Origin: Candidatus Nomurabacteria bacterium GW2011_GWA1_36_15
GTDB lineage: Bacteria > Patescibacteriota > Minisyncoccia > Phycocordibacterales > UBA9973
Length of the DNA: 46,456 nt
Direction: 5' to 3'
Assembly: GCA_000991415.1 (NCBI GenBank)
Contig: LBRM01000001.1
Span: 5,232 to 51,687 of the forward strand
Shown here: positions 22,168 to 35,194 of the stretch, one piece after another
Layout: each line of letters begins with the position of its first letter
Position numbering within the stretch: position 1 is the first letter of the stretch
Notes under the pieces: generated by a model
Seen by the model: the letters and a program-made list of their open reading frames with translations, nothing else
What the model was told of the DNA's origin: nothing
Database searches by the model: none
Program-made: the position numbers and the translations under genes

Positions 22168-22255
22168 CGGAAGGTATGGGAGTCGAACCCATAGAGGAGT
22201 TTTAAGTTCCTCACGGTTTAGCAAACCGTTGCCTTACCATTCGGCGCAACCTTCC
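22168..22255 (-). tRNA. tRNA-Ser (anticodon GCU), class II
   Basis: Acceptor GGAAGGT/ACCTTCC, anticodon stem ACGGT/ACCGT with loop TTGCTAA, long variable arm GAGGA..TCCTC, T arm ATGGG-TTCGACT-CCCAT. Confidence 0.85.
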
Positions 22256-22337: not shown

Positions 22338-22424
22338 GGAGAGATGGGTGAGTGGTTTAAACCAACAGTTTACTAAACTGTCGTCCCCTTAAAAGGACCG
22401 CGAGTTCGAATCTCGCTTTCTCCG
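22338..22424 (+). tRNA. Class II tRNA-Ser-like gene with apparent anticodon ACU
   Basis: Acceptor GGAGAGA/TTTCTCC (one G-U pair), D arm GGT/ACC, anticodon stem ACAGT/ACTGT with loop TTACTAA, long variable arm GTCC..GGAC, T arm GCGAG-TTCGAAT-CTCGC. The anticodon read is unusual. Confidence 0.7.
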
Positions 22425-24600: not shown

Positions 24601-25254
24601 TTATTTTTTAAGCCAGAATTGTTTTATTTGTTGGAATTTTTCAATACGTTTGTCTGTTTTTAATATTTCTTTTGGATAAAACTCCAACATAGTATCACAA
24701 AGTTCAAGCATCCAAGATTTTCTAGTTAGTTTTTCATTTATTGAAATAAAGTTGGAATTTGCTATTTGTATTTGCCCCCAACCTAAAGCCCCAATTGTAA
24801 GACAACCCCAATTCATATTTTCAATAGGTGTAAAATGAACATCTTTAATAACTAAAGCATTATTTAGTACTTCATAAGAAACCAAAAGAAGTGTAAAATA
24901 ATTACTATCATCCTCATAAAATCTCGATAATCTTTCAACAGAAGTAAGATTAGGCATATTGAATTTAGTATCAAGACGATGAGTTTTTACATCAATTATG
25001 TAATAGTTTCCTAATTTATCTTCAAAAGCTAAGTCTGCCATAGCTCGTCTAGCGAAACTTGAATTAAAATTTTTTCCGTCTTCACCAATAAATTTATGAA
25101 AGTTATCTTGAAGTAAGTCTTGAATTGCATCACCGACAGCTCTGGGACTATTTACCGTTCTTTCACCTAAAAAGTCTTTTTGGTGATTAAGAAAATCTTT
25201 TATTTTTTTCTCAATTGTTTTGTGGTTATTTTTCTGGAAAAAGTTTTGGTTCAT
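24601..25254 (-). CDS. Type II restriction endonuclease (PD-(D/E)XK fold)
   Basis: An ADLAF...YIIDVKTH arrangement (D...(D/E)xK). It overlaps the 3' end of the upstream methyltransferase gene by 29 nt. Specificity is unknown. Confidence 0.6.
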   Translation of the reverse strand: MNQNFFQKNNHKTIEKKIKDFLNHQKDFLGERTVNSPRAVGDAIQDLLQDNFHKFIGEDGKNFNSSFARRAMADLAFEDKLGNYYIIDVKTHRLDTKFNMPNLTSVERLSRFYEDDSNYFTLLLVSYEVLNNALVIKDVHFTPIENMNWGCLTIGALGWGQIQIANSNFISINEKLTRKSWMLELCDTMLEFYPKEILKTDKRIEKFQQIKQFWLKK

Positions 25255-26281
25255 AAATATTATTTTTAGATCTAGTACGACCTTTTACAACATTATCTTT
25301 TTGTATATTCAAAGAATTTCTTTCCCAAAAAATTCCACCAGAATAACCCTGAATACTTTTTTCAGTATCAGCTAGAATTATTCTCTTTTCAGATAAACAG
25401 CAATACTCTTTATTCATTTCAACACCGATGTATTTTCTATTCAATTTTTTAGCTACTACAGAAGTGGTACCTGAACCAAGAAACGGATCAAAAACAACTT
25501 CATTTTCATTTGTAGAAGCAAGAATAATCTTTGCTACTAATTTTTCTGGTTTCTGGGTTGGATGATCTGTATTTTCAGGCATAGACCAAAAAGGTATAGT
25601 AATATCTGTCCATAGATTCGATGGATATGTTAAACGAAACTTACCTTCTTCATTTTCTGTCCAGTCTTTAGCGACTCCATTTTCTTTATATGGAGCAATT
25701 ACTTTTTTCTTTATTTTTACGGCTTCAACATTAAAACAGTATTTATTAGAGACAGTTGCAAACCAAATATCTTCTGAACAATTTTTCCAATTACTTAAAG
25801 CTCCTCTACCTTTTTCTCGTTCCCAAGTTATTCTATTACGAACCGTTAGATATTTATTAAGTACTGAATAAATACTTGTAGAACTTTTCCAATCACAACA
25901 AACATAAACCGAAGCGGTGTTTTTTAAAGTGTGTTTAATGCTTAAAAACCATTTTTCAAATGTTCTTTCATAATCCTTGTCGCTTTTTTCTTTAAATTGA
26001 TTATTCCCAAAATCTTTATTTAGATTATATGGTGGGTCGATAAACAAAAGATCAACAAAATGTTTTGGTAATTTTTCTGCTACATCTTCAAGCGCACCAT
26101 AAATAGTTTTATTTAAAAAATTATTAGAACTTGTATCTTTTACCGAAAGTAATCTTTTCTCAAATTTTAAAACTTCTTCCTTAGAAACGAACGTCGTTCG
26201 ATTATTTTTAGCACGAATTTTATTTTTGGCTGTTTTGTCAGTTCTGCTATCTTTAGCAGACTTAATTATTTTATTTTTCAT
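25226..26281 (-). CDS. DNA methyltransferase, beta-class amino-MTase (N6-A or N4-C)
   Basis: Motif IV DLLFIDPPYN precedes motif I FDPFLGSGTT (beta permutation). There is a Lys-rich N-terminal extension. Confidence 0.85.
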   Translation of the reverse strand: MKNKIIKSAKDSRTDKTAKNKIRAKNNRTTFVSKEEVLKFEKRLLSVKDTSSNNFLNKTIYGALEDVAEKLPKHFVDLLFIDPPYNLNKDFGNNQFKEKSDKDYERTFEKWFLSIKHTLKNTASVYVCCDWKSSTSIYSVLNKYLTVRNRITWEREKGRGALSNWKNCSEDIWFATVSNKYCFNVEAVKIKKKVIAPYKENGVAKDWTENEEGKFRLTYPSNLWTDITIPFWSMPENTDHPTQKPEKLVAKIILASTNENEVVFDPFLGSGTTSVVAKKLNRKYIGVEMNKEYCCLSEKRIILADTEKSIQGYSGGIFWERNSLNIQKDNVVKGRTRSKNNIYEPKLFPEK

Positions 26282-26282
26282 A

Positions 26283-26410
26283 CAGGGATGGGTTTTGCTG
26301 GCTTAAAACATAAAGCTCCTCGCCAGCGATAGTATTACTACTACCCATAGCCTTTCGGCTACGACCCATCCCTGAGTACTCTGACGAGGAGTTTAATATC
26401 AAGGATGGGT
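26283..26410 (-). promoter_or_regulatory. Structured RNA leader of the R-M operon (four-way junction with alternative pairing)
   Basis: Read on the minus strand. P1 is CAGGGATGGGT/ACCCATCCCTG (26364-26374 with 26283-26293) and ends 1 nt before the MTase ATG. Hairpins are TAGCC-GAAA-GGCTA (26348-26361), GTAGTA-GTAA-TACTAT (26329-26344) and GCTGGC/GCCAGC (26297-26327). An upstream ACCCATCC (26403-26410) can compete for the P1 5' strand. Confidence 0.55.
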
Positions 26411-26539
26411 ATTTTTTGCCATGCTCTAAATTGCTTTAAGGTTTAGGCTTTACTATTAAATTTTACTATTAAAGTATAACAGATTTTAGAAAAATAAAAA
26501 ATCAAAAAAGGGGCAATCTTATTCTTGGATAAAATAAAT

Positions 26540-27580
26540 TTATAATATACTCCTTAAATATTCTATAGATTTTTTCTTTATATCTTCAGTGATATCTGGT
26601 TGTACTATGCCATTCTGTCCTGTACTATTAGTTTTATGAGCTAAAGAACCTCTAATATCAAACATTGATATTCCTTCTATCTTATGTTCTTTGAGCCCAC
26701 TTACCGCATTTTCATCTGCTTTTTGGTATAATTGCAAAAAATAATCTGTGGATGAAACACCAAAAATAACATAATTTATTTCCGCATGAGACGAATTCCC
26801 TAAAACACCATTCAGCACTGAACCAATACATGTTGCACCATTACTATCTCTAAAAACATTATATATTTTTTGTCCAACTCCTAATTCTATAAAGTATGGG
26901 TCATGAGTAGTTAGAATTACATTAATATTATTTTTTGATATTTCAAATAGTGCATTATATAAACTTCTTTTTAATTTTGGGTGTAAATATATTTCTGGCT
27001 CTTCAAAAATAAGAAACAATTCGTTGTTTTGTGTATGAGCTTTTCCTAATTCTTGTAAGATGGCAACAATAATTAGTCTTTGCGTGCCTTGTCCAACTTC
27101 TTCTATTTTTAAATCACAACCTGTACCATAACTATCTTTTACAATAGAATTCAATATTTTTTTCGATATTTCATCTTTTATAACTTTTTTTACATCAACC
27201 TCATTCAATTTTTTAACTCCTAATTCTAGTTTTATGTTCTCAACATTAAAAGAATCAAAAGTTTTAGATATTTTATTTAAAAAGTCTTCTACATCTTTAT
27301 AATTTACATCTGGCAATTTATCTAAAGTAATATTTACTAATTTAGAAAAAGCATCTCTCATTGGGTCTTCTTTTGCAGCTGTTTTAAGATGTTCTTGTGC
27401 TTGTATTTTTTCCGCAGGTATATAAATAGTTTGTTCTTCAGGTAAGACACTTTTTAAGGCTTTCATAAGATTTGTCTTCCCAGCATTATTTTCACCAGCA
27501 AATATTGTGTATTTGCCTAGTTCAAATTTTATTTCTTTCGTAATACTACTATTCTCTTGTGGAGGTATTTTAATATTCAT
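26540..27580 (-). CDS. ABC/OLD-type (AAA_15/21-like) ATPase, stand-alone
   Basis: Walker A FAGENNAGKTN, signature-like GQGTQRL, Walker B LFLIFEEPEIYLHP, H-loop TTHD. No Toprim or nuclease motif was recognised in the ~100-aa C-terminus. Confidence 0.7.
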   Translation of the reverse strand: MNIKIPPQENSSITKEIKFELGKYTIFAGENNAGKTNLMKALKSVLPEEQTIYIPAEKIQAQEHLKTAAKEDPMRDAFSKLVNITLDKLPDVNYKDVEDFLNKISKTFDSFNVENIKLELGVKKLNEVDVKKVIKDEISKKILNSIVKDSYGTGCDLKIEEVGQGTQRLIIVAILQELGKAHTQNNELFLIFEEPEIYLHPKLKRSLYNALFEISKNNINVILTTHDPYFIELGVGQKIYNVFRDSNGATCIGSVLNGVLGNSSHAEINYVIFGVSSTDYFLQLYQKADENAVSGLKEHKIEGISMFDIRGSLAHKTNSTGQNGIVQPDITEDIKKKSIEYLRSIL

Positions 27581-27587
27581 TTTTTTG

Positions 27588-27661
27588 TCCGCCTGCTACG
27601 ATTCGAACGTAGGACCCTCTAGGTATAAGCTAGATGCTCTAACCAGCTGAGCTACAGGCGG
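27588..27661 (-). tRNA. tRNA-Ile with anticodon UAU
   Basis: Acceptor CCGCCTG/CAGGCGG, U8, D arm GCTC-AGCTGGTTA-GAGC (Ile-like), anticodon stem TCTAG/CTAGA with loop CTTATAC, T arm CTACG-TTCGAAT-CGTAG, discriminator A. Confidence 0.8.
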
Positions 27662-27694
27662 ATAATTAACAACAATAACTATAACAAAATAAGG

Positions 27695-28375
27695 TTAAAA
27701 TGCAATTTTTTGTTTATTTAATAAAATATCTTGTATGTACTGTATACCCATCATAACTTCAGAGCAAATAGACCCGTTATCAAGAATAACTGAGCATGTT
27801 CCCTGTCCAAAACCATTAGTATAAGTTAAAGAAGATAGTTTAGTTTTTTTAATATAAGGTTTTCTAAATTGTGTAGTAGGGATACCAAGCGTCTTTGACC
27901 AAAAATTTATCTGCTTTCTTGTGTTCATATCAGAATATAAATGCAGATGAACTTTCAGTTTTGATTTAGGAACATTAAAAAATTTTAACCAACGGATAAA
28001 CAAAATAAGCATAGAAGGGTTTGTGTTAGTAAGTCCAATTGAGAATATTTTTGTTTTAGAACCTTCAGCCCAATATAAAAATAATCCCGCAATTAAAAAT
28101 TCTCTATCAGAAATAACTCCAATCCTTCGTGCAATATTCTGATATGCAACTCTATTTTTTGCATCACGTTTTGCCTTCATCGCATTCCTATATCTTTCAA
28201 TACGTTGAGGGCTATCAGCACGCAACTCTCTGATTCTCTTTTCTGACAATGGCATATCGTGAAGCCATTCACTTAAAGTACTTTTACTTACTTTAAGCTT
28301 TTCTTTAATCTGACTATAACTCATTCCTCTCTTACGCATTTCAAGGGCTTTTTGTTTATCTTTTTTCCTTGCCAT
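27695..28375 (-). CDS. HTH + LAGLIDADG-like homing-endonuclease-domain protein
   Basis: N-terminal resolvase-type HTH (RKRGMSYSQIKEKLKVSKSTLSEWL). The central LIAGLFLYWAEGSK resembles a LAGLIDADG motif. Confidence 0.5.
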   Translation of the reverse strand: MARKKDKQKALEMRKRGMSYSQIKEKLKVSKSTLSEWLHDMPLSEKRIRELRADSPQRIERYRNAMKAKRDAKNRVAYQNIARRIGVISDREFLIAGLFLYWAEGSKTKIFSIGLTNTNPSMLILFIRWLKFFNVPKSKLKVHLHLYSDMNTRKQINFWSKTLGIPTTQFRKPYIKKTKLSSLTYTNGFGQGTCSVILDNGSICSEVMMGIQYIQDILLNKQKIAF

Positions 28376-28444
28376 AAAAAAATACGAACCATTGGCTAAT
28401 AATTACAAATAATTATACACCTGTTCGTATTTCTATACAAGCTT

Positions 28445-30367
28445 TTAACTTTTTGTTTCTAATTTCGCATCTCCCCTCTTTTTTGGTATTATGCCATGAG
28501 CAGTGATTAATTTATCATACTCATCTTGCTCTAGAGTTTCAACTTCTATCAGTTTTTTAGCAATAGCATCTAATGCTTTCCTGTGTTCAGTTAAAACTTT
28601 CTCGGCTGATTTTATACCGTCATTTATAATCCTTGAAACTTCAGCGTCAACTTTCGTAGAAACTGTTTCGGAATATCCTTCTTCTCTAACTTCACCCCAA
28701 GCCAATTTCCCCCCTTCATTTCCTAAAGTAACTGGACCGATTAAATCAGACATCCCCCAACGGGTAACCATAGCGCGGGCTAAATTGGTGGCTACCTGCA
28801 AATCACTGGATGGACCGGTAGTAATATCGCCAAAAATCATTTTCTCCGTTACATACCCTCCCAGAGACATAGCAATATCATCTATGAATTCTTTTTTAGA
28901 TTGTAATCGTCTTTCTTCCAGAGGTAATTTTAAAGTATATCCTCCGGCATTACCACGAGCAATGATAGACACTTTATGCACTGGATCAGCATAAGGAAGC
29001 ACTGAAGCAACTAGGGCATGTCCTGCTTCATGATAAGCGGTAATTTCTTTTTCTTTTTTGGAAAGCAAATGGCTTTTCCTTTCAGGCCCAAGCATCACTT
29101 TTTCAATAGCCCGAATTAAATCGAATTGAAAAACTTTTTTGCGATTTTCTCGAGCTGCCAATATCGCTCCTTCATTCATTAAAGAATATAAATCAGCGCC
29201 AGAAAAACCGGGAGTTCGTTCGGCAATCAATTTTAAATTAACATCTTCAGCTAATGGTTTTAATCGCGCATGAATATTTAAAATCTCTTCACGATCTATT
29301 CGATCTGGTAAATCAAGCAATACCTTTCTGTCAAAACGTCCTGGACGAATAAGGGCTGGGTCAAGTACGTCTGGCCTATTGGTAGCAGCCATGACAATCA
29401 CTTTTTCATTGGGTTCAAAGCCATCCATTTCCACTAAAATTTGGTTTAGAGTTTGTTCACGTTCATCATTCCCTCCTCCAAATCCACCCCCGCGAGTCCT
29501 GCCTATTGCATCAAGTTCATCCATAAATACGATAGCTGGCGCTGCCTTTTTAGCCATTTTGAATAAGTCACGTACACGAGAGGCACCGACGCCCACGAAC
29601 ATTTCCACGAATTCACTTCCAGATAAGTGAAAAAAGGGCACTACTGCTTCTCCGGCCACTGCTCGCGCTAATAATGTCTTACCTGTGCCTGGAGGGCCAG
29701 TTAGAATTACTCCTTTGGGAATGCGAGCTCCAATATCTAAAAACTTTTTCGGGTTTTTCAAAAAATCAACAATTTCTTTTAGTTCTTCTTTGGCCTCTTT
29801 ACATCCAGCTACGTCTTTAAAAGTTACTTTGTTATTTTTATCATTCGGATCAGTGATACGAGCCTTGGATTGGCCAAAAGTAAACGCTTGCATACCTGCT
29901 CCTTTCACTTGGCGTGAAAGATACCAAAAGAAAAATAAAATAAAAATAATCGGCAAAAGGAAGGGTAACAAATTCATCAGCCAATATTTGAAACCGCTTT
30001 CATTCTTCACTTCTATATTTGTTGCGTTTAAGGCCTCTGGTTTCACTCCGTAATTAAAAAGGGTTTGGGAAAGAGAAGATTCCGTTTCTTTTTTAGAAGT
30101 TTTTATTTCGTCATTTTTAAAGGTGATCGTTAATTTTTCTCCTTCTACCAAAATATTTTTAACTTCCCCGGCTGAAACACTTTTAGCTAGGTCAGAAAGA
30201 GGAATTTCTGAGACACTTTTTGAAGTACCGGATATCATTAAATAAAAAGCGGTGATAGTAATAAAAATCAAAACAGCTCCAAGTATATTGCCAGAAAATT
30301 TAGGAATCTCTTGCTTTTTTTTGCCCTTATTTTTTATGTCTTTTTGATTTAAAAAGTTGAAATCCAT
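28445..30367 (-). CDS. ftsH: ATP-dependent zinc metalloprotease FtsH
   Basis: Two N-terminal TMs, AAA+ Walker A GPPGTGKT, Walker B FMDELD, SRH region and the HEAGHA zinc site. Confidence 0.95.
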
Positions 30368-30431
30368 GATTTGTTATCATAGCACAAAAAAGCCAAAAAT
30401 TAAAATTATTAAAATATGCTAAGATTAAAAC

Positions 30432-30878
30432 ATGGCTAATTATGCCGAAAATAGAAAAGCAAGATTTGATTATGAAATTTTAGGAAAATACGAAGCTGGT
30501 ATTGAGCTTTTAGGTATGGAAGTTAAATCTATTAGAAATGGAAAAATGTCTTTAGAAAGTGCTTTTGTGATAATCAGAGGAGGAGAAGCTTTTTTAATAA
30601 ATGTCAATATTCCACCTTATCAACCAAATAATGTACTAAAAGATTATAATCCGCTTCGCAATAGAAAACTTTTGATGACAAAAAAGGAAATAGCAATCTT
30701 AGCGGGTAGTGAAAAAAATAAAAGTTTGACAATAGTGCCGATTTCAGTGTACAATAAGGGTAGAAAAATCAAAGTAGAAATTGCTTTGGTTAAGGGTAAG
30801 AAAAAACAAGACAAACGTGAAAGCATAAAAAAACGCGAGACAGATCGCGAAATCAGGCGCGAGTATAAAGGACATTGA
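30432..30878 (+). CDS. smpB: SsrA-binding protein
   Basis: NRKARFDYEI...GIELLGMEVKS...LLMTKKEI signatures. It lies directly upstream of tmRNA. Confidence 0.9.
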   Translation: MANYAENRKARFDYEILGKYEAGIELLGMEVKSIRNGKMSLESAFVIIRGGEAFLINVNIPPYQPNNVLKDYNPLRNRKLLMTKKEIAILAGSEKNKSLTIVPISVYNKGRKIKVEIALVKGKKKQDKRESIKKRETDREIRREYKGH

Positions 30879-30889
30879 TAAAAAAATAT

Positions 30890-31286
30890 GGGGATGCAAG
30901 GCATAGACAGTGGGTCTAATGTAAAGATGCATGTCGAGCATGAACATAATCTCGTTAAAATTTGTTCAAATGTTAATTGCAAAATTAACTTCCAAAGCTA
31001 GAGCAATCGCTTCTCCTTACTTCGGTATGGCAGAATTTGCTTTCGCTTCAGTTTCCGCTTCGGCGTAAGCTGATGTCTTTCTCATAGACTTCCGATATAT
31101 GAGAGTTAGGCATAATATTATCGGGATAGTACCGATGCTTTCCTGACATCGGGACAAAATAAAGGGAATCGATTAAAAAATATTTTGCTCGTTTAATAAT
31201 TTTTTAATTTAAATCAAAAACGCGTCACACATGTGGATTTCTTTACAAAAACCTTCTGCACGGGGATTCAATTTCCCCCATCTCCA
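30890..31286 (+). ncRNA. ssrA: tmRNA (SsrA)
   Basis: 5' GGGGATG pairs with 3' CATCTCC (one G-U pair), T arm GGGGA-TTCAATT-TCCCC, discriminator A. An internal tag reading frame ends ...AEFAFASVSASA-TAA (stop at 31066-31068). It follows smpB. The resume codon was not determined. Confidence 0.85.
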
Positions 31287-32850
31287 CATCGTGGGGATTT
31301 GCGACTGCAAATTCCTCAAATAACCTTATGGTTGTTGGTATTTCATTGGTTCGATAACCTTCTTTTAGGCTATATGGTAATTTGGTATCGAAAATGAAGT
31401 AAAATAACCTTCTTTGCTCTAGTAAATCCAAATTAACCCATGCTTTATATGGGCTTTTTAGCATTGTAGTTGATTTATCTAAAGCGGTTCGATAAGGAAT
31501 GGCCATATCGGCTTTGATTTCTAATTTTTCATCCAAACTCTCTATTTCTTTGACAAAGTTTTCAATCTGTTCCTCGTATGTTTGACGAACTCTTTCAGAC
31601 TTAGCGGATATAGCCATCTTTGTTAGGGCAGATATCTCATTCGATAGTTTATCCTTACGAGTTTTATTTTGTTGATCCAGATTGTTATCTTTTTTTACTT
31701 CGTCATCCCACGCCCTATCAAACATTAAAGTTACCAATTCTCCCACTTCTGGCTTAAGATTATTTTTCTTTAGAATTTCTACAAATCCATCTTCAACATC
31801 TTTTTTTCTTGCACTCTTGCCATATGCTATGCATCCTTTAGTGTGGCAAATATAGTAAGCCCAGCGAAGGTTTTTCTTTACTTTTGTTGTCCATGCCGCC
31901 GTTAGTGGCTTATGGCAGTGAGTACATATTAGAAGATTTCTAAGTGGAAAATCTGAAGATACATCAACCCTAATGCGAACTCCAGAATCTTCTTTTTTCA
32001 ATCTTTTCTGAATAAGCTCAAATGTTTCAGTAGAAATAATTCCTTTATGTTTACCAAGACGACGTGTTACTCCCCACATTGGATATTCTATGTAACCCAT
32101 GTAAAATGGATCTTTAAGAATTTGTGTCAACTTATCAATATATTTTTCTGGTGATTGTTTTGTCCAAAACCCCTTCTCTACCAGAAATTTACAAACATCA
32201 ATTTTTCGGATAAAGATCCCCGTCGAAAAGTTTTCTAATGCTGGCTTTAATACTTCCAATCCTTCTTTTGTGGCAATTGATAACCTACCATGTGTAGGGT
32301 CTTTAGGCATTATATAACCTCTTTTTGCACCAAATGACCAATATCCTAGTTCAAGTCGTGCCTTTTGTTTTTGTATAACCTGCCTCCGATTTTGTTCACG
32401 TTCTAATTCCGCTTGTCCCGCAAACATGAGCTCTACAAATTTTCCTTCAGCACTTTCATCGAAGTTATAATTCAGACAAAGTAGTTTAACATCACGCATA
32501 TGGAATTCGGTTTTTAGTTCAAAGTGAAATTTTGCATCACGAGCAAATCTCTTTAAGTCATCAAAAACTACAAGAAATCTTTTATGTGGATTAGCATCAA
32601 TATGAGCTAATAACTCTCGCATCGCTGGTCTTTTCATAAAATCTCCGCCACCGCTATAGCTATCTGGGAAGGTCTTGTCATAAGGCACGCCTATACGTTC
32701 TAATTCTTTGATACAACGACTGTCTTGGCTCATTAATCCAGTCCCGTCTGTTTCTTGTCTTTTACTTGATACACGGGCGTATATAAGCCCAATACGACCT
32801 TCATAAGTTTTTTCTTCTTTATTTAGATTTATTTTTCGCGCTTTGCTCAT
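31243..32850 (-). CDS. Large serine recombinase (island integrase)
   Basis: IYARVSSKRQ catalytic motif, recombinase domain, zinc ribbon CTHCHKPL...ICHTKGC and a coiled-coil. The last 14 codons overlap the tmRNA T arm and acceptor (31243-31286). Confidence 0.85.
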   Translation of the reverse strand: MSKARKINLNKEEKTYEGRIGLIYARVSSKRQETDGTGLMSQDSRCIKELERIGVPYDKTFPDSYSGGGDFMKRPAMRELLAHIDANPHKRFLVVFDDLKRFARDAKFHFELKTEFHMRDVKLLCLNYNFDESAEGKFVELMFAGQAELEREQNRRQVIQKQKARLELGYWSFGAKRGYIMPKDPTHGRLSIATKEGLEVLKPALENFSTGIFIRKIDVCKFLVEKGFWTKQSPEKYIDKLTQILKDPFYMGYIEYPMWGVTRRLGKHKGIISTETFELIQKRLKKEDSGVRIRVDVSSDFPLRNLLICTHCHKPLTAAWTTKVKKNLRWAYYICHTKGCIAYGKSARKKDVEDGFVEILKKNNLKPEVGELVTLMFDRAWDDEVKKDNNLDQQNKTRKDKLSNEISALTKMAISAKSERVRQTYEEQIENFVKEIESLDEKLEIKADMAIPYRTALDKSTTMLKSPYKAWVNLDLLEQRRLFYFIFDTKLPYSLKEGYRTNEIPTTIRLFEEFAVANPHDVEMGEIESPCRRFL

Positions 32851-32992
32851 ATAGGTTGTTTTTATACTTTTCTATTTCACTTCTAATCACATTTTTACAA
32901 AACGATTCGAGAAACTGAAGTCGTGATTTGACCAACTCATCGGGGGATACAAAATCTTTAAGTATCCTTCTATATTCTTCAATCGTAACCAT
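32819..32992 (-). CDS. Candidate 57-aa helical protein (possible directionality factor), not in the ORF track
   Basis: Hand translation gives MVTIEEYRRILKDFVSPDELVKSRLQFLESFCKNVIRSEIEKYKNNLYEQSAKNKSK. It overlaps the recombinase start by 32 nt. No clear SD is present. Confidence 0.3.
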   Translation of the reverse strand: MVTIEEYRRILKDFVSPDELVKSRLQFLESFCKNVIRSEIEKYKNNLYEQSAKNKSK

Positions 32993-33079
32993 GTTCTATT
33001 TTGGTTGCGATACTGTCCCAGTTTTTGCTGATAACTCATATCTTGTTTTAATAAATGCCTCGGTTTTTCCGATAGCAAA

Positions 33080-33910
33080 CTAATTATCACTAACACGTCT
33101 ATTTTTTGTAATGCGTAATGATTGACGTTTCCCATTTTCGTATTTAGCTAAAATACTTCCATACATTCTATCTTCTCCATTTAGTTTCTGTATTTCTTGA
33201 GTCGCAGATCCGATTTTAGTTTCAGATGTTTCTATATCAGTGATTTTGTTTTTGCGGAATTTTATTTTGACTTCATCTTTTTCACCACTTCTTAAGTCAG
33301 ACAAAACTTCGGTTTCTGTATTTGATAGCCATATCAATGGTCGAGGGGGCATGGGCGTTAGACCTATTTCCTTAACGATGGATTTAAGAGAAATCAAGAG
33401 CATGTCGTTTGTCTTAAAATGTTTTTGTTTTGCTATTTCAATTTCTTCCGTACTTCCTATTCCACCAACTCCATTAGCTAATGCTACTATATATGGATCA
33501 TCATCACTGAAACATGCCCTTGCCACATAATATTCAAAGGCGGGATAAATTTCGTTATGATTTTTATCCCAATCAACTATACTAGCTTTCACTCGAGCAA
33601 TTTTATCTAAAGAAAAACCATAAGCACGAAATCGCTCAATGGCTTTTAGCCACACCAACTCAACAAAGGTAAATTTACGCCAGCCCATATTACCTTTTAG
33701 GCCCTTGGGCAGTAAATTATTTTTGTCCCAGTTATTTATAACTCTATACGGAATTTTTGTATCACCAACTGTGTATTTACGCATATTAAAATTTTCTTGC
33801 GTCTTCTTAAAATGTTCTCCAGAGAAGTACTCTTGAATGGCATGACGGAAGACGTTTCCTTTTGGGATTAAGTACTTGTCCGATGGATCGACTTTAACTT
33901 TTTTCCTCAT
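33080..33910 (-). CDS. MerR-like HTH protein (regulator or excisionase-like)
   Basis: YTVGDTKIPYRVINNWDKNNLLP...WRKFTFVELVWLKAIERFRAYGFSLDKI fits the MerR-type HTH + wing + helix pattern. A unique C-terminal domain follows. Confidence 0.6.
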   Translation of the reverse strand: MRKKVKVDPSDKYLIPKGNVFRHAIQEYFSGEHFKKTQENFNMRKYTVGDTKIPYRVINNWDKNNLLPKGLKGNMGWRKFTFVELVWLKAIERFRAYGFSLDKIARVKASIVDWDKNHNEIYPAFEYYVARACFSDDDPYIVALANGVGGIGSTEEIEIAKQKHFKTNDMLLISLKSIVKEIGLTPMPPRPLIWLSNTETEVLSDLRSGEKDEVKIKFRKNKITDIETSETKIGSATQEIQKLNGEDRMYGSILAKYENGKRQSLRITKNRRVSDN

Positions 33911-33915
33911 TTATG

Positions 33916-33937
33916 AATTATACATCAATGTATAATT
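33916..33937. promoter_or_regulatory. Perfect 10+10 palindrome (operator candidate) overlapping -10-like boxes
   Basis: AATTATACAT-CA-ATGTATAATT lies 6 nt upstream of the MerR-like ATG. It contains TATAAT on both strands. Confidence 0.55.
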
Positions 33938-33990
33938 TAAGCAAGTCTATAATGTGGATAACTCTAACGACTGGATCGCATATTTTTGGC

Positions 33991-34019
33991 TTCAAATTCT
34001 TCCAATTTTGTGTTACAAT
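33991..34019 (+). promoter_or_regulatory. Sigma70-type promoter for the rightward island transcript
   Basis: TTCAAA (33991-33996), a 17-nt spacer, then TACAAT (34014-34019) with an upstream TG (extended -10). Confidence 0.6.
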
Positions 34020-34020
34020 C

Positions 34021-34216
34021 GGGTTACAAGTTAATAAGTGGCCTAACCCTTAAAAATATTTGAGGTATGGTTGTAAAGCCTGCAACGGAGCAAAAAACCC
34101 ATCATTGGGGGCTACCGTTGCAGGTCTTACGTCGAAAGATGTATGGATAGCGAAAGCTATCACCCTAGTGGTGGGCTTTTTGCGTTTCATTACTAATTTA
34201 GACTAAATAAATTTAT
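34021..34216 (+). promoter_or_regulatory. Roughly 190-nt structured 5' leader RNA
   Basis: GGGTTA/TAACCC (34021-34049); a 10-bp helix CCTGCAACGG/CCGTTGCAGG (34079-34124); and two adjacent GAAA-tetraloop hairpins (34130-34141 and 34146-34161). No ORF is present and no known riboswitch was recognised. Confidence 0.45.
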
Positions 34217-35194
34217 ATGAAAAAATATCTCGCAATTTTGTTTTTAATAGCATTCACTGTTCCATCAGTTGCCTTGGCTTCTTGGTGGAATCCTTTTAGT
34301 TGGTTTAATAACTGGAGTTTTAATAAAAAAGAAGCGATACCACAGGTACAGGTAGAAGTAGAGAAAACTACTCCATCTGCAGACAATTCGGCAATCGTTA
34401 TTAAAACAGAGCAAGATATTGCTAAACAAGAAACGAAAGAACAAGTAAGAAATAACACTGTTTCGGTTTCACCTGATGTCTTAATTTGCAATGGGAAAGA
34501 ATGGTCGAAATGTCCTGCTGGACATAACTTTTATTGTCCTGCACAAGGCGATGCACAGTGTGTACCACAACTTTCTGTCTTAACAAATAATCAAGTTAAT
34601 ACTTCCGTAAAGCAAGATCCCCCTCCATCATTAGCACCACAACAGACAAGTCAAGAAACTCAAAAGACTTCGCCATCTAATACTATTTTGTGTAATGGGA
34701 AATACTGGACACCTTGTTCGAGTGGACGTGAGCTTATCTGCCCCGCCAACGGTGATGCATATTGCAAGGTTCAATTGACGCAAGTACAACTACAACGTGC
34801 TACAAATAATAAAAATAATTTTATTCAGCGTTTTGATATTTTGTTGAAAGACTACCGAGACTTTCGAGATATACAATCAAAGGAGATTGATGCTATGAAC
34901 CAGATGCTCGTGGAGTTAGGAAAGTATACTGGAGCAATAACGGAGTTGAAAGTTACCCTTACTAAGCAAAGGAGGGAGCGATTGATTAAGAGTTTGAGCT
35001 CATTTAATCAGCTTATTACTGCTAGGGAACGAATGAAATCAGATTACCAAAATCTTGATGTTGAAATGTATCTCGAAAATAACTTTGAGGATGCTTTACA
35101 AGATGGATCTTCGTTCCTTAATAAAACGAAGACTCAATTCGAGCAAGATAAAGCGGTATATTACGACTATATCTCAAAACAAATTCACATATGA
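34217..35194 (+). CDS. Secreted protein with two Cys-rich repeats and a coiled-coil C-terminus
   Basis: Signal peptide MKKYLAILFLIAFTVPSVALA. Repeats are ICNGKEWSKCPAGHNFYCPAQGDAQCV and LCNGKYWTPCSSGRELICPANGDAYCK. Confidence 0.65.
   Translation: MKKYLAILFLIAFTVPSVALASWWNPFSWFNNWSFNKKEAIPQVQVEVEKTTPSADNSAIVIKTEQDIAKQETKEQVRNNTVSVSPDVLICNGKEWSKCPAGHNFYCPAQGDAQCVPQLSVLTNNQVNTSVKQDPPPSLAPQQTSQETQKTSPSNTILCNGKYWTPCSSGRELICPANGDAYCKVQLTQVQLQRATNNKNNFIQRFDILLKDYRDFRDIQSKEIDAMNQMLVELGKYTGAITELKVTLTKQRRERLIKSLSSFNQLITARERMKSDYQNLDVEMYLENNFEDALQDGSSFLNKTKTQFEQDKAVYYDYISKQIHI

Follow-up and report, generated by a model that had tools for sequence, protein, structure and literature searches.

A gap of 258 nt separates an ATPase gene (26540-27580, minus strand) from a DNA methyltransferase gene in the window, as we call the whole 46,456-nt stretch of Candidatus Nomurabacteria DNA analysed here, and it raises the question of whether the RNA read from this gap folds into a structure that controls the gene behind it. 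The initial annotation had seen a compact cloverleaf-like fold on the minus strand and had proposed it as an RNA-switch-like leader of a restriction-modification (R-M) operon. RNAfold returned the cloverleaf as the minimum free energy structure (-56.5 kcal/mol for 26283-26410 and -61.3 for 26279-26449), and the individual sequence elements that had been listed were all found where they had been placed or within 1-2 nt of it. The structure holds, but its span was drawn too short, since it cuts off a hairpin (P1) that belongs to the same RNA.

A scan against Rfam identified this RNA. The covariance model of LOOT (RF03000; 121 positions, curated gathering score 46.4 bits) matched 26328-26449 on the minus strand over model positions 1-121 of 121, with 77.7 bits and E=4.8e-13. 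Alignment with the consensus revealed the hallmarks of the family in this copy (copy 1), namely P1 with its CCUAAAC/GCAUGG internal loop, an A-rich linker, a long P2, and two adjoining hairpins capped by GNRA tetraloops; pairs that are non-canonical relative to the consensus were confined to the upper P2 stem, and the same segment pairs with the tail instead. As judged by this match, the fold belongs to a known but functionally uncharacterised family, and the idea of a new control element, or a new family, has to be given up. The tRNA model had no match in the "cloverleaf" region, Rfam tRNA matches being found only at 27588-27661, 22338-22424, 22168-22255 and 1735-1819.

LOOT goes back to the ZWD alignments of Weinberg and Breaker on which the 224-motif survey (PMC5737381) is based. 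It is shown as a "metagenomic-based RNA" among the Weinberg/Breaker motifs taken into Rfam 14 (PMC7779021), appears also in a table of Rfam 15 (PMC11701678), and serves in CaCoFold (10.1101/2020.02.04.933952) as an example with many cross-covariations. The searchable literature yielded these Rfam, motif-survey and CaCoFold mentions and no functional study. Rfam, which has held the family since release 14, types it as "Gene; sRNA", and it was known only from metagenomes. The FtsH protein encoded in the window shares 85-92% identity with proteins of Candidatus Nomurabacteria / Paceibacterota MAGs. Three copies of LOOT were detected in the 617-kb source genome, two in the window (Table 1) and one on another contig. 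LOOT was also present in 22 of 61 close relatives (0-7 copies per genome), and in 90 of 401 (22%) sampled genomes of the class, representing 73 of 282 genera; none of 14 control genomes had a match. What had been an orphan "sRNA" is now placed in Candidatus Nomurabacteria and in 22% of the class genomes sampled. For comparison we gathered 131 LOOT loci with their flanks and used the 130 with non-identical cores.

Table 1. Positions in the window of the elements of LOOT copy 1, the genes behind it, and LOOT copy 2
Feature	Position	Strand	Basis or remark
Extended -10-like box TGTTATACT	26473-26481	-	sequence
Two tandem TTTAATAGTAAA units	26462-26473 and 26449-26460	-	sequence
LOOT RNA core (P1, P2, P3, P4)	26328-26449	-	RF03000 match
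P1 hairpin with conserved CCUAAAC/GCAUGG internal loop	26418-26449	-	alignment
a, P2 5' strand ACCCAUCCUUGA, including ACCCAUCC at 26403-26410	26399-26410	-	consensus partner of a'
tip, P2 loop core CUCCUCGUCAG, with CUCCUCG at 26385-26391; pairs with the 3' tail to give a pseudoknot	26381-26391	-	
a', P2 3' strand UCAGGGAUGGGU; pairs with either a or a2	26364-26375	-	
P3 hairpin, GAAA tetraloop	26346-26363	-	alignment
P4 hairpin, GUAA tetraloop	26328-26345	-	alignment
Tail t' (G)CUGGCGAGGAG, complementary to tip; contains the GAGGAG first read as a Shine-Dalgarno sequence	26316-26327	-	
U-run CUUUAUGUUUU (6 U in 8); contains the "mini-ORF" of the initial annotation	26305-26315	-	
t2, GCCAGC; re-pairs with the 5' part of the tail, closing the third hairpin	26297-26302	-	
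Third hairpin GCUGGC...GCCAGC enclosing GAGGAGCUUUAUGUUUUAA	26297-26327	-	
a2, ACCCAUCCCUG, which repeats the P2 5' strand; 1 nt before the methyltransferase AUG (26279-26281)	26283-26293	-	
Closing helix, 11 bp: a' CAGGGAUGGGU with a2 ACCCAUCCCUG	26364-26374 with 26283-26293	-	
N6/N4 DNA methyltransferase gene, proposed target of the leader	25226-26281	-	Pfam N6_N4_Mtase 2.7e-42; PADLOC MTase_II 2.9e-64
217-aa ORF, presumed restriction enzyme; overlaps the methyltransferase stop by 29 nt	24601-25254	-	
Second LOOT copy, core; with tail and U-run to 34181	34040-34161	+	RF03000 86.6 bits; no a2 (class A)

The family consensus and the cloverleaf differ in the partner of one strand. LOOT P2 consists of GGGAUGGGU paired with the upstream ACCCAUCC, while in the cloverleaf the same strand (a') closes the structure with a2. 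The LOOT fold using the upstream strand a was calculated at -59.2 kcal/mol, compared with -61.3 for the cloverleaf; the pseudoknot described below, unscored by the folding programs used, would tip the balance towards the LOOT fold. Of these two alternative predicted folds, the one with the upstream strand, and not the cloverleaf, is the family consensus. The upstream ACCCAUCC had been taken for a competitor of the closing helix; the alternative pairing is there, but the role assigned to that segment was wrong, as it is the consensus partner of a' in P2.

The tip, as we call the P2 loop, has its complement in the tail, the segment directly behind Rfam position 121. The duplex of a locus's own tip and tail averaged -24.7 kcal/mol, against -13.3 for cross-locus combinations, and in copy 1 tip CUCCUCGUCAG (26381-26391) and tail CUGGCGAGGAG (26316-26326) gave -21.2. 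Conservation in homologous loci, which the initial annotation had named as a check, was found for this pairing in 128 of 130 loci (-15 kcal/mol or lower). When the register was fixed by Watson-Crick pairs only, the non-Watson-Crick positions of the tip:tail helix were G·U in 225 cases and A·C in 45 (p=6e-30), which indicates selection for a helix of the LOOT-strand RNA and not for an inverted repeat in DNA. Behind the tail, 121 of 130 loci have a U-run (median position +14); its strength did not differ between leaders with and without a2 (p=0.25), and that of copy 1 is typical of the family. The two-codon mini-ORF that had been noticed here does not hold up, as its AUG sits in the U-run and just 19 of 130 relatives have an ATG in the tail/U-run region. 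A second partner of the tail, on its 5' side, is t2, the tail:t2 duplex averaging -12.2 kcal/mol over LOOT loci and -8.4 after shuffling (p=4e-16).

With regard to termination, the U-run follows the long-range tip:tail helix; a simple hairpin scan found no intrinsic terminator at copy 1 and one at copy 2. The U-run would be terminator-like when the tip:tail helix precedes it, and termination is its most likely function, judging from this arrangement. A point against such a reading is that a helix enclosing ~60 nt of structured RNA would be an unusual intrinsic terminator. The predicted tip:tail helix and the U-run are constant features of LOOT that lie outside the 121-nt Rfam model, and a2 is an add-on. 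We also observed that the P2 helix is hypervariable and yet almost strictly Watson-Crick, with 13 G·U in 1,409 pairs over the 130 loci, compared with ~12% G·U in tip:tail. Since this strictness is found also in loci without a2, matching to a2 offers no explanation for it.

A copy of a locus's own P2 5' strand was scored as a2 when at least 9 of 10 positions were identical and the copy lay at +20 to +150; loci with a2 are referred to as class B and those without as class A. Such a copy was present in 28 of 130 loci (22%), whereas the frequency in cross-locus comparisons was 0.56%, and two controls, a direct copy of the P2 3' strand downstream and a 5'-strand copy in the upstream flank, were each found in 0 of 130. 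The 28 loci carry 24 distinct a2 sequences, each matching its own P2. By script, 25 of the 28 copies end 0-7 nt ahead of an ATG; one of the others has a GTG start (L111), another an ATG right after the copy (L045), and only L042 is off. The duplex of a' with the locus's own start region averaged -17.7 kcal/mol in class B, against -6.7 cross-locus. Class A showed no weak form of a2 (own duplex -3.1 kcal/mol, cross-locus -2.9). The per-column pairing of a2 with a' was 97%, a figure that is partly circular, class B having been chosen by similarity of a2 to a. Over the 28 loci the median ΔΔG between cloverleaf and LOOT fold was 0.7 kcal/mol, that is, the two are nearly isoenergetic. Both alternative pairings thus recur with different sequences in relatives, far beyond chance; the mutually exclusive pairings suspected at this locus are real, and the predicted helices (a:a' versus a':a2, and tip:tail versus tail:t2) are conserved and co-vary. 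Because a2 is absent from 78% of loci, a lock on the start site cannot be the core function of LOOT.

Whether LOOT acts on the adjoining gene or elsewhere was judged from its surroundings. The downstream gene was co-oriented with LOOT in 108 of the 130 loci, opposed in 4 and ambiguous in 18, and between the LOOT 3' end and the first ATG there were 58 nt (median). Co-orientation to this degree means that LOOT behaves as a 5' leader and not as a free sRNA, so the free-standing sRNA gene of the Rfam entry does not describe these loci; this concerns the annotated function and not membership. Upstream genes showed neither a preferred kind nor a preferred direction (37 same, 47 opposite), which leaves no room for the suggestion that the RNA is a noncoding partner of the upstream ATPase. 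Neighbour proteins at 31 LOOT loci did not cluster, and since none recurs between loci, there is nothing to tie the ATPase to LOOT. That protein (346 aa, encoded directly downstream of the tRNA gene at 27588-27661) is an ABC-type ATPase matching Old/AriA/GajA models (PADLOC 3e-27 to 1e-17) without a Toprim or nuclease domain.

A trans-acting sRNA is nevertheless the alternative to be weighed first: LOOT would be free-standing, with its own promoter and terminator, and a2 would be a trans target as in phage P1 c4, with other targets elsewhere. Nearly all loci show a ~150-nt unit flanked by a promoter-like box and by the tail with its U-run, no a2 is nearby in 78% of loci, and a hypervariable, almost strictly Watson-Crick P2 is what an antisense "address" would look like. 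The copies within one genome all differ in their P2 sequence, but this is expected by chance anyway, and in the free RNA a' is locked in a perfect helix of 10-14 bp. When the a strands of the three copies in the source genome were used to scan it (at most 1 mismatch in 11), only the known a2 and chance intragenic matches were recovered, leaving the two class A copies without trans targets, and further copies of the P2 5' strand in the flanks of the 130 loci did not exceed the control. The lack of further copies of a in the flanks or in the source genome favours a cis effect on the following gene, as does the strong co-orientation with that gene at a fixed distance. We therefore regard a trans-acting sRNA as unlikely, if a serious competitor of the cis-acting leader.

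A cis-acting leader would be transcribed together with the gene behind it. Upstream of copy 1 lies an extended -10-like box; a consensus promoter scan found no -35/-10 pair that passes. Among the 130 relatives, 73 have a TAWAMT hexamer, its median distance ahead of LOOT position 1 being 18 nt. The tandem TTTAATAGTAAA units, which sit where a conserved "ACAAnTTAATAA" box precedes LOOT in relatives, probably form the 5' end of the transcript. In four relatives (L011, L016, L021 and L030), ~40-90 nt ahead of LOOT, a conserved "AAGCTAGGATGG" comes before a short inverted repeat over the promoter -35/-10, e.g. acctctgaaaaagaggTATAAT; the two together are possibly an operator or the end of another element. 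A possible pairing of UUAAUAA in the 5' box with UUAUUAA in the spacer was seen by eye in some loci, in very A/U-rich sequence.

RNA runs from the same samples as the source genome contained nothing covering the source organism. Wastewater metatranscriptome contigs, unstranded and of low depth, touch the LOOT locus of one relative (L025:1504-1700): an exact contig of 151 nt spans LOOT, tail and U-run, and a 219-nt contig of a near relative extends from the 3' half of LOOT into another coding sequence. No reads for the L025 locus were found in raw-read runs.

Shine-Dalgarno (SD)-like 4-mers precede 10% of 236 long ORFs of the source genome, against a background of 10%, i.e., there is no SD usage; the absence of an SD before the methyltransferase AUG, correctly noted at the outset, is the norm. 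The GAGGAG that had been called a strong SD is the 3' strand of the conserved loop-tail helix. Start regions in this genome are A/U-rich, with an A-rich stretch at positions -11 to -3. As starts are SD-free and A/U-rich, a G+C-rich segment locked in an 11-bp helix beside the AUG is a plausible block to initiation.

We propose that copy 1 is a cis-acting, self-promoted 5' leader of the methyltransferase gene with a terminator and a start-site lock, and we put the probability of this model at roughly 0.6. An RNA-switch-like leader remains the best reading of the locus, one of the two pairings covering the region that abuts the methyltransferase start. It rests on family membership, on three pairings (tip:tail, tail:t2 and a':a2) that are conserved and co-vary, on the constant placement of a2 at the start codon, and on co-orientation with the downstream gene; to these we add, as inferred parts of the model, the transcription start, termination, translational blocking and the trigger of the switch. 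Transcription would proceed from the extended -10 (26473-26481), starting ~10-25 nt before P1, and the nascent RNA would fold P1, P2 (a:a'), P3 and P4. The emerging tail would pair with the P2 loop, and the pseudoknot helix followed by the U-run would act as an intrinsic terminator, so that most transcripts would be LOOT RNAs of ~150 nt. Read-through RNA would carry t2 and a2 and could refold to a':a2 and tail:t2, with P3 and P4 unchanged, and the resulting cloverleaf would bury the 11 nt abutting the methyltransferase AUG and block initiation. Given that the two folds are nearly isoenergetic, the balance between them could be set in two ways, by a factor acting on the core or by kinetics. Either something would stabilise or open the LOOT core, or nascent RNA would be open and older RNA locked. 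In the phage MS2 maturation gene and hok mRNA, a long-range helix shuts the start site once the downstream strand is made, the nascent form being open and the mature form closed; these serve as an analogy only, for the kinetic version of the model. The elements outside the Rfam model (pseudoknot tail and U-run, t2 and a2) make this a concrete proposal that mutations could test.

Two further alternatives bear on the start-site lock and on the repeats themselves. The cloverleaf of copy 1 might be incidental, LOOT working by core and terminator only and a2 being a neutral remnant, e.g. of a duplication; most LOOT loci do without a2 and U-run strength is the same in both classes, but a neutral remnant would hardly account for 28 loci with 24 sequences that match their own P2, lie at the start codon and give near-isoenergetic folds, nor for the enrichment of a2 before one functional gene class, and we give this account little chance of being right. 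That the direct (a/a2) and inverted (a/a', tip/tail) repeats are instead recombination or attachment sites, a target-site duplication, or protein-binding sites of mobile islands is hardly credible, even though both window copies lie in islands adjoining tRNA-Ile and the tmRNA gene and serine recombinase genes lie just upstream of several LOOT copies, since the G·U excess bespeaks selection of one strand as RNA, a target-site duplication cannot explain an a' complementary to the repeat, P1 and the promoter are conserved along with the duplicated segment while lying outside it, a2 is tied to the start codon (0-7 nt) and not to island ends, and sequences that differ at every locus offer no common protein site.

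The leader model leads to the question of which genes are controlled. Genes downstream of LOOT, surveyed in 122 relatives, were very diverse, and included many for signal-peptide proteins as well as DUF4352, DUF2726, DUF4145, T5orf172, DUF5655, trypsin-like, LamG and GmrSD_N proteins. This lack of a common function makes a metabolite-sensing riboswitch unlikely. N6_N4 methyltransferase genes were, however, found behind 6 of 27 a2-bearing leaders and 1 of 95 others (Fisher p=4e-4), and further a2-bearing leaders precede HSDR_N, SNase, UDG, HNH and VRR-NUC proteins. The methyltransferase loci can be counted as independent, because the proteins are only 25-32% identical and each has a different P2. 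The link to R-M control that had been suggested from this locus is thus upheld by the enrichment before DNA methyltransferases, but specificity to R-M is not; our comparison lends some statistical support to a connection between LOOT and R-M control, the RNA itself not being R-M-specific. As for the operon of copy 1 as a type II R-M system, the methyltransferase is clear; its 217-aa partner had no match in Pfam, NCBIfam, PADLOC or PDB sequences, and a single-sequence AlphaFold model of it has a pLDDT of 42. By eye only, a FED...IIDVK stretch in the latter resembles the PD-(D/E)XK nuclease motif.

The arrangement has parallels in known systems. The phage P1 c4 layout was reportedly described by Citron and Schuster in 1990 as a1b1 / a'b' / a2b2. 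In P1/P7 c4 (immI operon, RF01695), as in LOOT, the RNA and the target that closely follows it share one transcript, a short a' is complementary to a2 over the start of the next gene, a same-sense copy lies further upstream, and the pairing sequence, which sets specificity, varies between related elements; both RNAs are carried by mobile elements. The two differ in that there is no sequence or structure homology, the upstream copy in LOOT makes a stable helix with a', and there is one site instead of two; the C4 model had no match in 26000-34500 at E<=0.1, nor did any match in the window reach its gathering score. The expression of ant is under the control of C4 antisense RNA (PMC8201110).

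Riboswitch and attenuator leaders resemble LOOT in having a conserved folded core in the 5' UTR, a core strand (here a') that alternatively pairs with the start region, and a U-run after a helix made by the core. LOOT further has the 5' UTR position and co-orientation of riboswitch-like leaders and mutually exclusive conserved helices, a2 being present in 22% of loci only. It departs from them in that its downstream genes are not coherent but diverse and share no common function, the terminator helix is a pseudoknot with its own loop, and the switching helix is hypervariable and not conserved. The Rfam model extends no further than P4, under an entry of the sRNA gene type, and leaves the tail:loop pseudoknot and U-run, t2, a2 and co-orientation outside.

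Expression of R-M systems is controlled by C proteins with C-boxes, by antisense RNAs and by methyltransferase autoregulation. Copy 1 is like these controls in preceding a methyltransferase that is type II-like, and DNA methyltransferases are over-represented behind leaders with a2; copy 1 is unlike C-protein systems in that the operon has no C-protein gene, the 258-nt gap has no conserved ORF, and LOOT precedes many non-R-M genes. A broader proposal, which we advance as possible but tentative, is that LOOT is a portable self-promoted control cassette of CPR/Patescibacteria mobile islands, composed of a terminating pseudoknotted core and a re-programmable strand that in about one-fifth of cases is matched to the start of the next gene, preferentially for DNA methyltransferases and nucleases. 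If this were true, LOOT would be an RNA-only counterpart of C-protein R-M control, with P1 c4-like logic, in a phylum in which almost no regulation is understood, and the start-matched variant would serve genes whose dosage or timing matters on entering a new cell. CPR bacteria are uncultivated and SD-poor and their gene regulation is almost unexplored, and a module as compact as LOOT, open to tests in vitro or in a cell-free system, would be a rare handle on how they control horizontally acquired genes, those of R-M included.

The remaining observations concern the other copies and a neighbouring match. Opposite the tRNA gene, at 27587-27661 on the plus strand, a sub-threshold Plastid-ycf2 match (35.9 bits; gathering score 65.7) is almost certainly spurious. 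Copy 2 has a promoter-like TTCAAA-17-TACAAT and a terminator-like site, and precedes a gene for a signal-peptide (secreted) protein. It lies in a tmRNA-adjacent island, with the tmRNA gene at 30890-31289 and an adjoining large serine recombinase gene at 31243-32850 on the minus strand. The third copy (L002, C11:61743-61857), located before a gene for a DUF5655 protein, has a tip of a different type, CUGAACCCCGCGUUCAG, and a tail matching that tip. The P2 5' strand of copy 1, ACCCATCCTTG (26399-26410), is one base off the tip of copy 2, ACCCATCATTG (34097-34107); pairing between a' of copy 1 and the copy 2 loop is conceivable in principle, but the resemblance may be coincidence.
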